A stretch of DNA of 64,000 nt. Origin: Candidatus Methylomirabilota bacterium (GTDB lineage: Bacteria; Methylomirabilota; Methylomirabilia; Rokubacteriales; CSP1-6). The stretch spans positions 8,330 through 72,329 of the forward strand of contig JBKPAK010000013.1 in NCBI GenBank assembly GCA_046726415.1. The letters are read 5' to 3'. The notes below the pieces were generated by a model that did no database searches, was not told where the DNA came from, and saw only the letters and a list, made by a program, of their open reading frames with translations. Numbering within the stretch: the stretch's first letter is position 1; each line of letters starts with the position of its first letter. A program made the translations under genes and the position numbers. This document shows positions 4,490 through 34,549 of this stretch, piece after piece.

Positions 4490-6334
4490 ATGAACATCCT
4501 GGGTATCTCCGCCTTCTATCACGACAGCGCGGCCTGCATCGTCCGCGACGGGGAAATCGTCGCGGCCGCCCAGGAAGAGCGCTTCACGCGGAAGAAGCAC
4601 GACGCCGGGTTCCCGAAGCAGGCCCTGGACTACTGCCTCCGGGAGTCGGCGATCCGCCCCGAAGAGCTGGACTACGTGGCCTTCTACGACAAGCCGCTCC
4701 TGAAGTTCGAGCGCCTGCTGGAGACCTATGTCGCCTACGCGCCGGCGGGGTTCCGATCGTTCATAAACGCGATGCCCGTGTGGATCCGTCAGAAGCTCCA
4801 CCTGCCGCGCGAGCTCGACTGCGGACTCGGCGGCCGATACAAGGGCGGCTACATCTTCACGGAGCATCACGAGTCCCATGCGGCAAGCGCCTTCTTCCCG
4901 TCCCCCTTTGAGGAGGCGGCGATCCTTACGCTCGACGGCGTGGGGGAGTGGGCGACCGGGAGCTACGGGGTCGGGCGGGGCAATCGGATCCAGCTGACGC
5001 ATGAGCTGCGGTTTCCCCACTCACTCGGCCTCCTCTACTCTGCCTTCACGTATTTCACCGGCTTCAAAGTGAATTCCGGGGAATACAAGCTCATGGGCCT
5101 CGCCCCGTACGGAGAGCCGCGATTCGCCGACGCCATCCTGCGCCATCTCGTCGATCTAAAGGCCGATGGATCGTTTCGTATGGACATGTCGTACTTCAAC
5201 TACTGCCAAGGCTTGACCATGACCAGTCGCAAGTTCGACGCGCTGTTCGAGGGGCCCCCGCGGCGACCGGAGTCGCAGCTGACCCAGCGCGAGATGGACA
5301 TCGCGGCGTCCATCCAGACGGTGACTGAGGAAATCATGCTCCGGTGCGGGCGGCACATTGCGCGAGAGACAGGCATGCGCAATCTCGTGATGGCGGGGGG
5401 GGTGGCGCTCAACTGCGTGGGCAACGGCCGGATCCTCCGGGAGGGTGACTTCGACCAGATCTTCATCCAGCCCGGCGCCGGCGATGCTGGCGGCGCCATC
5501 GGCGCGGCCCTCTTCGTATGGCACCAGCTGCTCGGGAAGCCCCGGCGGGCTGACGGCGTGCGCGACTTCCAGCGCGGTTCGCTCCTGGGACCCCGCTACA
5601 GCAACGAGGAGATCCGCGCCTACCTCGACAGCATCGGGGCGCGCTACCACTACCACGCGGACGAGGCGACTCTTCTCGAGGTCGTCGCGGACGATATCGC
5701 CGCCGAGAAGGTCGTCGGCCACTTTCACGGGCGGATGGAGTTCGGGCCTCGCGCCCTGGGCGCGCGCTCGATCATCGGCGACGCGCGCTCGTCGAAGATG
5801 CAGTCCCTCATGAATTTAAAGATCAAGTTCCGCGAGTCCTTCCGCCCCTTTGCGCCCTGCGTCCTCCGCGAGGACGTGCACGAGTGGTTCGAGATGGAGC
5901 CGAACGCGGACAGTCCGTACATGCTTCTTGTCGCCGATGTCCAGCCGGACAAGCGGGTGCCGGTCGGCGAGCACGAGCTGGGCGAGATGACCGGCGTTGA
6001 CCGGCTCCTCAAGGTCGTCCGGTCGAAGGTGCCGGCGGTGACGCACGTCGACTACTCGGCGCGCGTTCAGACGGTCGATGCCGAGCGGCACGGGCGGTTC
6101 TATCGATTGATGAAGAAGTTCAAGGAAAAGACCGGCTGCCCTGTGATCATCAATACTAGCTTCAACGTGCGGAGCGAGCCCATCGTGTGCTCCCCAGAGC
6201 ACGCGTACCGGTGCTTCATGGCGTGCAACATGGATGTGCTCGTGCTGGAGGACTTCGTGCTCGACAAGGAAGAGCAGCCCAAAGCCAAGCAGCACGAGAT
6301 CGACGAATACCTCGCTCAGTTCGACCTGGACTAA
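4490..6334 (+). CDS. O-carbamoyltransferase, NodU/CmcH/SxtI family
   Basis: MNILGISAFYHDSAA, QEERFTRKKH, EHHESHAASAF, GEYKLMGLAPYG, AGGVALNC, EFGPRALGARS, KFRESFRPFAP, INTSFNVR. Confidence 0.96.
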   Translation: MNILGISAFYHDSAACIVRDGEIVAAAQEERFTRKKHDAGFPKQALDYCLRESAIRPEELDYVAFYDKPLLKFERLLETYVAYAPAGFRSFINAMPVWIRQKLHLPRELDCGLGGRYKGGYIFTEHHESHAASAFFPSPFEEAAILTLDGVGEWATGSYGVGRGNRIQLTHELRFPHSLGLLYSAFTYFTGFKVNSGEYKLMGLAPYGEPRFADAILRHLVDLKADGSFRMDMSYFNYCQGLTMTSRKFDALFEGPPRRPESQLTQREMDIAASIQTVTEEIMLRCGRHIARETGMRNLVMAGGVALNCVGNGRILREGDFDQIFIQPGAGDAGGAIGAALFVWHQLLGKPRRADGVRDFQRGSLLGPRYSNEEIRAYLDSIGARYHYHADEATLLEVVADDIAAEKVVGHFHGRMEFGPRALGARSIIGDARSSKMQSLMNLKIKFRESFRPFAPCVLREDVHEWFEMEPNADSPYMLLVADVQPDKRVPVGEHELGEMTGVDRLLKVVRSKVPAVTHVDYSARVQTVDAERHGRFYRLMKKFKEKTGCPVIINTSFNVRSEPIVCSPEHAYRCFMACNMDVLVLEDFVLDKEEQPKAKQHEIDEYLAQFDLD

Positions 6335-6343
6335 GTGCGCACT

Positions 6344-33100: not shown

Positions 33101-33435
33101 CGAACCCCGTGATGGCGGAGCACGCCGTGCTCGTCGAGTTCCAGACCGCAGTTGAGGGCCGTTTGCCCTCCGAATCCCAAGAGGATCCCGTCCGGCCGCT
33201 CCCGCTCGATCACGCCCTCCACGAACTGCCGCGTGACCGGCAGGAAATAGACCTGGTTCGCCAGGTACTCGGAGGTCTGGATCGTGGCAATGTTAGGATT
33301 GACCAGAACCGTGGTGATCCCCTCCTCGCGAAGAGCCTTGATGGCTTGGCTTCCGGAGTAATCAAACTCGCCGGCCTCGCCGATCTTCAGCGCGCCACTC
33401 CCCAGGACGAGGACCTTCTCGGGCTTACCGCCCAT
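30151..33435 (-). CDS. carB: Carbamoyl-phosphate synthase large subunit
   Basis: [71 protein letters not shown], C-terminal MGS domain; 1094 aa. Confidence 0.98.
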   Translation of the reverse strand: [1094 protein letters not shown]

Positions 33436-34549
33436 GAAGCATTCCGACGAACTCGTCGAAGAGAAACGCCGTATCGACTGGACCCGGCGTGGCCTCGGGA
33501 TGAAATTGCACGCTCATGAATGGCCGGGACCGGTGGCGGATCCCTTCATTGCTGTCGTCGTTGGCGTTCCGGAACCAGACGGCCCAGTCGTCGGGGAGGG
33601 TGCGATCGTCCACCGCGTACCCGTGGTTCTGGGCGGTCACATAGCAGTGGCTGGTGCCCACCCACCCACACGGCTGATTCTGGCCGCGATGGCCAAACTT
33701 CAGCTTGTAGGTGTCCGCCCCCGCGGCAAGCGCCAAGATCTGGTGGCCCAGGCAGATGCCGAAGACGGGGTACTCCGCCTCCATGGCCCGCCGTACGTGA
33801 GCGATGGTCGGAACACACGTCTTGGGATCGCCCGGCCCGTTGGACACCAGGACGCCGTCGAAGTCCTCTTGGAAGAAGTCGTAGTCCCACGGCACCCGGA
33901 TGACGGTCAGCCCCCGGCTGGTCAGGCTGCGGATAATGCTGTTCTTGCTCCCGCAATCCACCAGCACGACCCGCTTGTCACCTGAGCCGTAGATCACCGG
34001 CTCCTTGACACTGACCAGCGACACCAGGTTGTCTTGGTTGGGATCGCGCAACTCGACGTCCTCGTCGGCGGCCACGATCTTGCCCAGCATCACCCCACGC
34101 TCGCGCAAGCGCTTGGTCAGGGCCCGGGTGTCGACTTCCCCCAGGCCCGGCACTCCTTGCTCGGCCAGCCACTGCCCCAAGCTCTTGGCGGCGCTCCAGT
34201 GGCTGTAGTGGACCGAGGCTTCGGCGACGACAAGGCCGGTGATCTGGATTTCCCCGGATTCGAAGGTCAGGTCCAGTCCGTCCGCCATGCGGCGTTCAGG
34301 CACCCCGTAGTTGCCGACCAGGGGATACGTGAGCACGAGGATCTGGCCCTTGTACGAGGGATCGGTCAACGCTTCGGGGTATCCAACCATTCCGGTATTG
34401 AAGACGACCTCGCCGCTCACCGCGGCCGGGAAGCCGAAGGGAAGACCGGGGAACACGGACCCGTCCTCGAGAACGAGCCATGCACGCCGCGTTTCCTCGT
34501 CGGCCGCCAGCGCGTACGTCTTCTCAGAGTCGCCGCCCACGCATCTCAC
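33425..34549 (-). CDS. carA: Carbamoyl-phosphate synthase small (glutaminase) subunit
   Basis: GEVVFNTGMVGYPEALTDPSY, SNGPGDP, FGICLGHQ, KFGHRGQN, VQFHPE. Confidence 0.98.
   Translation of the reverse strand: MRCVGGDSEKTYALAADEETRRAWLVLEDGSVFPGLPFGFPAAVSGEVVFNTGMVGYPEALTDPSYKGQILVLTYPLVGNYGVPERRMADGLDLTFESGEIQITGLVVAEASVHYSHWSAAKSLGQWLAEQGVPGLGEVDTRALTKRLRERGVMLGKIVAADEDVELRDPNQDNLVSLVSVKEPVIYGSGDKRVVLVDCGSKNSIIRSLTSRGLTVIRVPWDYDFFQEDFDGVLVSNGPGDPKTCVPTIAHVRRAMEAEYPVFGICLGHQILALAAGADTYKLKFGHRGQNQPCGWVGTSHCYVTAQNHGYAVDDRTLPDDWAVWFRNANDDSNEGIRHRSRPFMSVQFHPEATPGPVDTAFLFDEFVGMLHGR

Follow-up and report, generated by a model that had tools for sequence, protein, structure and literature searches.

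Can a carbamoyl group that is activated in the cytoplasm be handed to an exported polysaccharide when no MBOAT protein is present to carry out the membrane step? This question is raised by a large polysaccharide locus, identified by Pfam annotation of open reading frames (ORFs), in the genome of a Candidatus Methylomirabilota bacterium (GTDB lineage Bacteria; Methylomirabilota; Methylomirabilia; Rokubacteriales; CSP1-6). The stretch of DNA that was analyzed, hereafter called the window, spans 64,000 nucleotides (nt) and corresponds to positions 8,330 to 72,329 of the forward strand of contig JBKPAK010000013.1 in assembly GCA_046726415.1, a genome with a completeness of 98% and a contamination of 4.66%. 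According to the ORF table and Pfam, its plus strand carries a tightly packed series of genes for a priming sugar transferase, a NodU/SxtI-type O-carbamoyltransferase, the membrane protein SxtJ, and SxtK, a microprotein of the DUF5989 family. An earlier note on this DNA had assigned to a candidate carbamoyl relay a carAB pair, the NodU-type enzyme, SxtJ, a 67-residue protein ending in PFIYTLF, and a membrane-anchored SGNH protein. All of these parts are encoded in the window at the positions given below, as judged from Pfam matches and translations.

Two bodies of literature bear on these genes. Passages of a published account of acyl shuttles (PMC12148441) describe FXYXXF as the shuttle motif of DltX and of bacterial MBOATs, whose tyrosine carries D-alanine or acetyl to an SGNH partner, and give FIYANF as the C terminus of NgPatA; the earlier note was correct in treating this mechanism as established for DltX/DltB/DltD and PatA/PatB. 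Passages on the saxitoxin gene clusters (PMC2679770, PMC2885083) list sxtI, sxtJ, sxtK and sxtL consecutively, and enter SxtJ and SxtK as “unknown,” in agreement with what the earlier note believed. In the literature that we searched (subscription journals excluded), we found no paper on DUF5989, none that joins SxtK to DltX, and none that joins a carbamoyltransferase to MBOAT and SGNH proteins.

We find that the association of the four genes for the NodU-type enzyme, SxtJ, SxtK and the SGNH protein, together with the tyrosine motif of SxtK, is real and specific. By analogy with the Dlt and PatAB systems, the locus would encode a tyrosine shuttle in which NodU and SxtJ replace the MBOAT protein and in which the cargo is a carbamoyl group. 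We regard this reading as the most economical one and give it a probability of roughly 45%.

SxtK ends in a conserved tyrosine motif

The SxtK gene of the window (positions 6800..7003, plus strand) encodes 67 amino acids and matches DUF5989 (PF19451) with 65.5 bits against a cut-off of 27. The C-terminal part of the translation reads RENKKWWMLPILIMIFGMGALVLLAGTPVAPFIYTLF and is followed directly by the stop codon. The protein is built from the segment RENKKWW, a 21-residue hydrophobic helix, and the tail TPVAPFIYTLF, such that an FxYxxF motif that includes Tyr64 (FIYTLF) forms the extreme C terminus after a single transmembrane (TM) helix, which is flanked by KK on its N side.

A scan for DUF5989 proteins that covered one genome per species yielded at least 514 relatives, from which 80 loci representing more than ten phyla were kept. 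The tyrosine, whose conservation the earlier note had made a test of its proposal, is retained in 80 of the 80 loci, and a strict F.Y..F C terminus is present in 76. The identical 8-mer APFIYTLF ends 65 of the 80 proteins, again across more than ten phyla. Among 29 aligned DUF5989 proteins, APFIYT never varies, and at least 90% retain the last Phe. Such endings are rare in the genome that contains the window, where only 3 of 111,970 ORFs end with aromatic-x-Y-x-x-aromatic. Only the two DUF5989 proteins, namely SxtK and a second genomic copy that scores 75.7 bits against the Pfam family, have an F.Y..F ending after a hydrophobic helix.

The last 12 residues of SxtK include no Lys or Arg in any of the 80 loci, and at least one such residue occurs within the 15 residues before the helix in all 80. 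Because of the distribution of Lys and Arg residues, the positive-inside rule predicts that the tyrosine tail of SxtK and the domain of the SGNH protein described below are both periplasmic, as are DltX and DltD.

An anchored SGNH family accompanies NodU, SxtJ and SxtK

The SGNH gene of the window (positions 10148..11323 within ORF 10148-11560, minus strand) encodes an N-terminally anchored protein of 391 amino acids with matches to Lipase_GDSL_2 (36.2 versus a cut-off of 32.9) and ALGX (31.8 versus 26.5). The protein has a basic start (MRIKR), a hydrophobic helix, and the segments GDSHTYG and DRDMHP, with Ser81 in the GDS block and His358 in DxH. The GDS block, the C-terminal Asp/His block and the fold all place it in the SGNH superfamily, and the block III Asn is replaced by Asp. 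Among 31 sequences (the window protein and 30 encoded next to NodU, SxtJ and SxtK genes, hereafter called triads), G79, S81, D144 and H358 are invariant. A hydrophobic 19-mer precedes the GDS block in 31 of 31, mostly after a stretch rich in Lys and Arg; this count comes from a hydropathy scan, and a stricter TM detector recovers the anchor in 13 of 30.

Searches of the 80 loci with jackhmmer, started from the window proteins, recovered SxtJ in 77, NodU in 72, and the SGNH family of the window in 36 (44 matches). Pfam at E<=1e-5 recognized three of the five triad-adjacent SGNH proteins submitted, and the membership of the rest rests on the jackhmmer profile. In 30 of the 80 loci, the SGNH gene lies no more than 300 nt from the triad or inside it, and three further loci carry one within 2.3 kilobases (kb). 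The gene orders observed were NodU-J-K-SGNH, SGNH-NodU-J-K, NodU-SGNH-J-K, NodU-J-SGNH-K and J-K-NodU-SGNH. When 588 neighboring ORFs were clustered all against all, the most recurrent cluster was the SGNH family, which was found in 20 loci compared with 6 for the next cluster.

The same association is evident in the phylum of the window, for which we used 135 genomes that are each at least 90% complete, with thresholds of E<=1e-20 for SGNH and E<=1e-40 for NodU. DUF5989 was detected in 54 of these genomes, the SGNH family in 61, and MBOAT in 25. The SGNH family occurs in 49 of the 54 SxtK-positive genomes versus 12 of the 81 SxtK-negative genomes (both genes in 49, SxtK only in 5, SGNH only in 12, and neither in 69); the presence of both co-varies within several genera, and related genomes are not independent samples. 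A NodU gene lies within 3 kb of 58 of the 64 SxtK genes. Among the matches listed, an SGNH gene lies within 4 kb of 38 of the 64 SxtK genes, in 34 of 54 genomes; 12 further SGNH matches stand outside this listing, and the proximity counts are therefore lower bounds.

The linkage also discriminates between two kinds of NodU gene. The 82 NodU matches comprise 58 of the triad type and 24 that are solo, the latter including one fragment and the second NodU of the window genome, cut off from its SxtK by a contig break. Among the matches listed, a neighboring SGNH gene (4 kb away at most) accompanies 37 of the 58 triad NodU genes versus 0 of the 24 solo NodU genes. These counts include two unpublished genomes, G022 (SxtK-positive, with SGNH nearby) and G044 (SGNH only, with one partial solo NodU), and dropping both shifts each count by one. 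The enrichment of SGNH genes beside sxtIJK-type triads on which the earlier note depended is thus strong and specific.

The 12 genomes that have the SGNH family and lack SxtK include 3 with MBOAT and 9 with neither. In two of them (G080 and G100), the SGNH gene is located 329 and 363 nt, respectively, from an MBOAT gene, and the family therefore belongs with those that receive groups from FxYxxF tails. Another SxtK-less genome has a solo NodU-type gene and an MBOAT gene on one strand, separated by about 2.3 kb (G106:C1:17869-21923).

The genome of the window appears to hold a second NodU/SxtJ-like/DUF5989 triad that is split by an assembly gap. The NodU gene is at the start of contig C156 (199-2058, minus strand), and the SxtK region is at the end of contig C82 (22421-22841, minus strand), with an open frame in the place of SxtJ. 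A short tandem peptide-coding repeat is found at the start of C156 beside this triad, and genes for an acyl-CoA dehydrogenase, a histidine phosphatase, Ppx/GppA and polyphosphate kinase lie downstream.

The carbamoyltransferase and its membrane partner

The carbamoyltransferase gene (positions 4490..6334, plus strand) probably starts at the ATG at 4490, within an ORF that opens at 4211, and encodes 614 amino acids. The protein has the two-domain architecture of Carbam_trans_N (PF02543, E 4e-104) and Carbam_trans_C (PF16861, E 2e-69) that is also seen in TobZ, NodU and CmcH. Unlike these enzymes, the clade of the window enzyme is nearly always accompanied by SxtJ and SxtK. The enzyme scores 126.3 bits against the NodU equivalog model NF041651, whose cut-off is 1000 bits, and it is therefore a relative of this family rather than a NodU orthologue. 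Enzymes of the TobZ/NodU family activate carbamoyl phosphate with ATP to form carbamoyl-AMP. To our knowledge, the members that have been characterized act alone and directly on hydroxyl groups of soluble small molecules.

The window enzyme lacks a signal sequence and is expected to reside in the cytoplasm. Triad-linked NodU proteins from other phyla (24 homologues) are 64 to 78% identical to it, with a mean column identity of 74%. This conservation across phyla is a hint, drawn from sequence comparison, that the acceptor may be a constant protein feature rather than a set of varied glycans.

SxtJ (positions 6335..6790, plus strand; 151 amino acids) has two TM helices ahead of a hydrophobic helix or hairpin. 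It matches PF19588 with 41.2 bits against a cut-off of 24.4, and all 30 of its best clusters in the Atlas cluster database are SxtJ. Its conserved core includes P..RP.Y, PIG.V.S, TPIGL, RL.GRDPL and SYW, with F21 and W135 as the only invariant residues. An AlphaFold2 model with a predicted local distance difference test (pLDDT) score of 92.1 has helices at residues 15-39 and 49-72 and a 44-residue helix at 74-117. The latter spans 39 hydrophobic residues, including the conserved PIG...TPIGL segment, and is followed by an Arg-rich tail. Because of the Arg-rich loops, we read residues 74-117 of the model as a putative hairpin inserted from the cytoplasmic side, and place both termini inside.

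The extreme C terminus of SxtJ is also conserved as (R/S)Y(F/Y)(R/K)QF, and the window protein ends with RYYRQF. Gln is second to last in 70 of 77 SxtJ proteins, and Phe or Tyr is last in 65 of 77. This peptide may serve to dock NodU. We also considered the C-terminal Tyr of SxtJ as a cytoplasmic carrier arm, and rejected it as a required nucleophile, since only 59 of 77 proteins have a Tyr there.

No MBOAT gene is found in the genome, and carAB is present twice

Pfam finds no MBOAT match among the 61 distinct ORFs of the window, and PF03062 has none in the whole 98%-complete genome. A jackhmmer search of the genome that was seeded with two MBOATs from related loci likewise gave no match. Thus, the absence of MBOAT genes that the earlier note had reported for the window extends to the genome. 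Near SxtK genes in general, MBOAT genes are infrequent. None of the 64 SxtK genes in the phylum set has one within 10 kb, and 3 of the 80 cross-phylum loci include an MBOAT gene, whose products end with PFIYFIF, KFIYFDF and TFLYNQF. The SGNH genes beside triads do not travel with an MBOAT gene; constant company of that kind would have counted against the earlier note's proposal.

The window also carries carB (positions 30151..33435, minus strand; TIGR01369, 1463 bits versus a cut-off of 1027) and carA (positions 33425..34549, minus strand; TIGR01368, 448.8 bits versus 307), both identified by Pfam and above their NCBIfam equivalog cut-offs. Contig C292 holds another carA and carB, which makes the window pair an extra copy. 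CarB was found near SxtK in only 3 of the 80 loci and CarA in 1, and the carAB pair is therefore a feature of the window locus rather than a defining part of the module. The extra carAB that had been proposed as part of the pathway is thus a genuine second copy in this genome, but its linkage to the module is rare.

Tyrosine-tailed microproteins in phages

Viral contigs were scanned with the NodU alignment, and the best 80 of 453 relatives were kept. Five of these 80 phage NodU loci (L110, L111, L112, L113 and L143) encode a soluble, Lys-rich protein of 38 to 40 amino acids that ends with DPF[STN]YK[NH]F, and in four of the five its gene overlaps the NodU stop codon. No SxtJ or SGNH match was found in the five loci. 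In these five loci, phage NodU genes are coupled to FxYxxF microproteins, and NodU enzymes and tyrosine tails therefore pair even without a membrane. SxtJ appears only alongside the membrane-anchored form of the tail. Genes of the queuosine or 7-deazaguanine type (QueC, PTPS/QueD-like, radical SAM and GTP cyclohydrolase I) neighbor the L111 and L113 loci, and phage NodU with its microprotein may carry out a carbamoyl step in a DNA modification of the 7-deazaguanine type. A viral scan with the SxtK alignment returned a single locus (L100), which encodes a lone DUF5989 protein ending with APFIYTLF and has no NodU, SxtJ or SGNH match within 8 kb of this gene.

A possible carbamoyl relay

Taken as a tyrosine shuttle, the locus would encode a four-part, MBOAT-independent module that carbamoylates an exported polysaccharide outside the cytoplasmic membrane. 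The extra CarAB would supply carbamoyl phosphate, which the cytoplasmic NodU/SxtI-type enzyme would convert with ATP to carbamoyl-AMP. The conserved Arg-rich cytoplasmic tail of SxtJ would dock NodU, and the hydrophobic hairpin of SxtJ would form a pocket wherein Tyr64 in the FIYTLF tail of SxtK receives the carbamoyl group. This tail would then swing to the periplasmic SGNH enzyme and carbamoylate Ser81, from which the carbamoyl group would be handed to a sugar hydroxyl of the polymer. We infer every chemical step, as well as the passage through SxtJ and the identity of the acceptor.

Several features of this scheme have counterparts in DltX-DltB-DltD and PatA-PatB, as described in passages of PMC12148441. 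These include a C-terminal FXYXXF motif after a TM helix (on a microprotein in the case of DltX), an SGNH partner that is anchored at its N terminus and uses a Ser nucleophile, activation of the donor in the cytoplasm (which is driven by ATP in Dlt as well), and a polymer of the envelope as the target. The scheme departs from these systems in that neither the window locus nor the genome has an MBOAT, a NodU-type carbamoyltransferase and the small SxtJ are proposed to act as donor machinery, and the cargo would be carbamoyl rather than acyl. A membrane domain that passes a cytoplasm-derived group to an outward-facing SGNH domain is also found in AT3-SGNH proteins of the OatA type, whereas the window has no AT3 domain and its parts are separate proteins. 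The saxitoxin clusters place an O-carbamoyltransferase, SxtJ, SxtK and a GDSL/SGNH-like gene in the same order, according to passages of PMC2679770. In L. wollei, moreover, sxtI is truncated and sxtL is missing, according to a passage of PMC3037375. In contrast to the toxin clusters, the window genes are part of a polysaccharide locus, and the SGNH gene is 3.2 kb away.

A number of observations weigh against such a relay. The first concern the distribution of SGNH genes. No SGNH gene lies within 5 kb of the triad in 47 of the 80 loci, 15 of which have less than 1.5 kb of DNA on one side, and the neighbors of triads without SGNH are often housekeeping genes. In the phylum set, 5 of the 54 SxtK-positive genomes have no SGNH match at E<=1e-20, and 26 of the 64 SxtK genes have none within 4 kb among the matches listed. 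The second triad of the window genome has no SGNH gene in the 14 kb seen. Nine genomes (G044, G045, G049, G069, G076, G083, G089, G104 and G009) have the SGNH family without DUF5989 or MBOAT at the thresholds used; either these proteins have another donor, or a small gene was missed by the assemblies. Within the window itself, SxtK and the SGNH gene are 3190 nt apart on opposite strands, and two other genes lie in the gap. The complete relay that the earlier note had proposed is supported in part, namely in its motif, its linkage and the absence of MBOAT, but in the window the SGNH gene stands apart from the triad.

Other points of this kind concern the proteins and the chemistry. A comparison of SxtK with the DltX Pfam family gave no match at E<=10, with only DUF5989 and a weak DUF4260 match returned. 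SxtK is thus outside the DltX sequence family, and its likeness to DltX is one of motif and architecture, without demonstrable homology. The conservation profile of SxtJ includes no conserved His or obvious catalytic residue, and the protein gives no evident route for a carbamoyl group across the membrane. Serine hydrolases usually retain carbamoyl-serine adducts for long periods, and onward transfer from Ser81 may be slow. The model of the window SGNH protein (pLDDT 79.8) is closest among solved folds to CgnD, a peptide hydrolase rather than a glycan acyltransferase, with a Z score of 22.2 over 240 aligned residues compared with 18.4 for the next match. Generic GDSL esterases gave Z scores of 15 to 18, PatB 15.2 and the C-terminal domain of OatA 12.8, and DltD, AlgX and AlgJ were not among the 50 structural matches listed, an absence that rules nothing out. 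A predicted complex of SxtK with the window SGNH protein (score 0.14, mark 0.32) weighs neither way. No natural fusion of SxtK to a longer protein was scored, which the search tool itself rates as weak evidence.

Alternative explanations

The main alternative to a tyrosine shuttle is that NodU carbamoylates a nucleotide-sugar or an undecaprenyl-linked unit in the cytoplasm, that SxtJ and SxtK tether or regulate the enzyme, and that the SGNH protein removes carbamoyl or acetyl groups as a periplasmic esterase or decarbamoylase. The direct action of TobZ/NodU-family enzymes on small-molecule hydroxyls is in keeping with this explanation, which also accounts for the many triads that have no SGNH gene nearby and for a SxtJ protein that offers no evident carbamoyl conduit. 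The structural neighbors of the SGNH model are mostly esterases. The gene arrangement at the head of the triad points the same way. The NodU gene starts 5 nt after the end of the Bac_transf priming sugar transferase gene (positions 2976..4484, plus strand; PF02397, E 1e-63; ORF table), whose own start is uncertain as its ORF overlaps the preceding gene. Because of the 5-nt spacing, we place the two genes in one transcription unit; the Bac_transf gene serves as context only. Moreover, passages of the saxitoxin literature (PMC2679770, PMC2885083, PMC3037375) describe SxtL as GDSL-lipase-like and propose that it removes carbamoyl groups.

Three observations are difficult to accommodate if NodU acts on glycan precursors in the cytoplasm. 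A mere tether does not require an outward 8-residue tail that is identical in 65 of the 80 loci and contains the invariant Tyr of a shuttle motif. An enzyme that erases carbamoyl groups should not discriminate between NodU enzymes, yet the SGNH family accompanies only those NodU genes that are coupled to SxtJ and SxtK (37 of 58 versus 0 of 24). Finally, 64 to 78% identity across phyla would be odd for a NodU enzyme that acts on differing glycans. We consider this cytoplasmic route rather unlikely overall.

The second alternative is that the window SGNH protein is unrelated to the triad and belongs to a set of five paralogous envelope esterases of this genome, its presence in the locus being due to chance or some other purpose. 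Its gene is neither adjacent to the triad nor on the same strand and has insertion sequence (IS) remnants alongside. The four other paralogues are encoded amid unrelated genes, whose products include an ABC transporter, a TPR/cyclase protein, a GT2-GtrA protein and a pyroglutamyl peptidase. A profile of the 30 triad-adjacent SGNH proteins alone ranks the window protein fourth of the five (E 8e-39), and in the same-genus genome G088 the single SxtK gene is not on the contig of any listed SGNH match. The existence of the four other paralogues also tells against the relay. However, the window protein is the best of the paralogues when scored against the SGNH alignment (E 6e-76), though this alignment has the window protein as its first row. 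A tree of 46 family members places the window protein as sister to the L061 SGNH protein, whose gene is located between NodU and SxtJ. In addition, the gap of 3190 nt falls inside the range of 26 to 3632 nt observed for other linked pairs. A chance association therefore strikes us as improbable.

The closest structural match raises one further alternative. Passages of PMC10070186 describe CgnD (PDB 8A2N) as a slow hydrolase that frees an Ile-Tyr-Trp-derived core in the crocagin pathway, in which CgnI is a carbamoyltransferase. That pathway, like the window system, combines a carbamoyltransferase with a Tyr-containing C-terminal peptide, whereas CgnD is a soluble and very slow peptide hydrolase and CgnA is a soluble precursor peptide.

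Crocagin formation also needs CgnB, CgnC and CgnE, none of which turned up in the Pfam annotation of the window, where no search was aimed at them; the same annotation gave no dioxygenase next to the triad. That SxtK is itself the substrate, in the style of a peptide that is made by the ribosome and modified after translation (a RiPP) or a peptide cofactor, with NodU modifying the Tyr peptide and a CgnD-like SGNH protein cutting it to release a small carbamoylated peptide or signal, would fit the CgnD match, the pairing of CgnI with CgnD, and the soluble phage microproteins that have the same tail beside NodU with no SGNH gene nearby, but we hold it the least probable explanation, as the SxtK tail is held in the membrane by its TM helix, the SGNH family also pairs with MBOATs bearing the same tail, no crocagin-type peptide-binding or oxygenase genes stand by the triad in that annotation, and a 67-residue membrane protein that is destroyed stoichiometrically would be a costly substrate.

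Other features of the locus

The two genes between SxtK and the SGNH gene have no Pfam family. One (7389-8186, minus strand) encodes 265 amino acids with one hydrophobic helix, and the other (8816-10057, plus strand) encodes a secreted protein of 413 amino acids that weakly matches a parallel beta-helix model (TIGR03805, E 1e-4). IS remnants occupy positions 11574-14160, between the SGNH gene and the Wzy gene, and include a weak match to an IS110-type transposase (12157-12915) and an IstB fragment (13352-13843). An ORF of 482 amino acids beside the SGNH gene (11732-13180, minus strand) was considered as a hidden MBOAT and rejected, as it is an Arg/Pro-rich, wrong-frame ORF over these remnants.

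The context of the module, as annotated with Pfam, comprises genes for a Wzz/GNVR protein, a GFO/IDH/MocA oxidoreductase, the Bac_transf priming transferase, a Wzy-like polymerase, several glycosyltransferases, a DegT aminotransferase, a flippase, a pyruvyl transferase, a sigma-54 activator and a Poly_export protein. The polysaccharide pyruvyl transferase gene is positioned between two genes for CheR-like methyltransferases (36496-39764). A FemAB/GNAT-like gene is present at 16160-17254, and another is found directly 3′ of SxtK in a planctomycete locus (L022:10245-11318).

Implications

Accounts of the saxitoxin clusters have entered SxtJ and SxtK/DUF5989 as “unknown” from the outset, and relatives of DUF5989 are present in the genomes of at least 514 species. 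More tentatively than for the window locus itself, we suggest that NodU, SxtJ and SxtK, along with the SGNH protein, could constitute a widespread MBOAT-independent relay that carries carbamoyl groups across the membrane in more than 500 species, with SxtJ as a minimal conduit and with soluble versions in phages that lack SxtJ. If the proposed relay is correct, the tyrosine shuttle of the Dlt and PatAB systems would be tied neither to MBOAT proteins nor to acyl groups, and a protein of 150 residues could stand in for an MBOAT of 11 TM segments as the membrane step. Surface glycans could then be carbamoylated outside the cell, and a large family of membrane-anchored SGNH proteins would gain a directly testable function in genomes that have no MBOAT at all. 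Moreover, sxtJ and sxtK would be explained, and the GDSL-like sxtL would be recast as a transferase.

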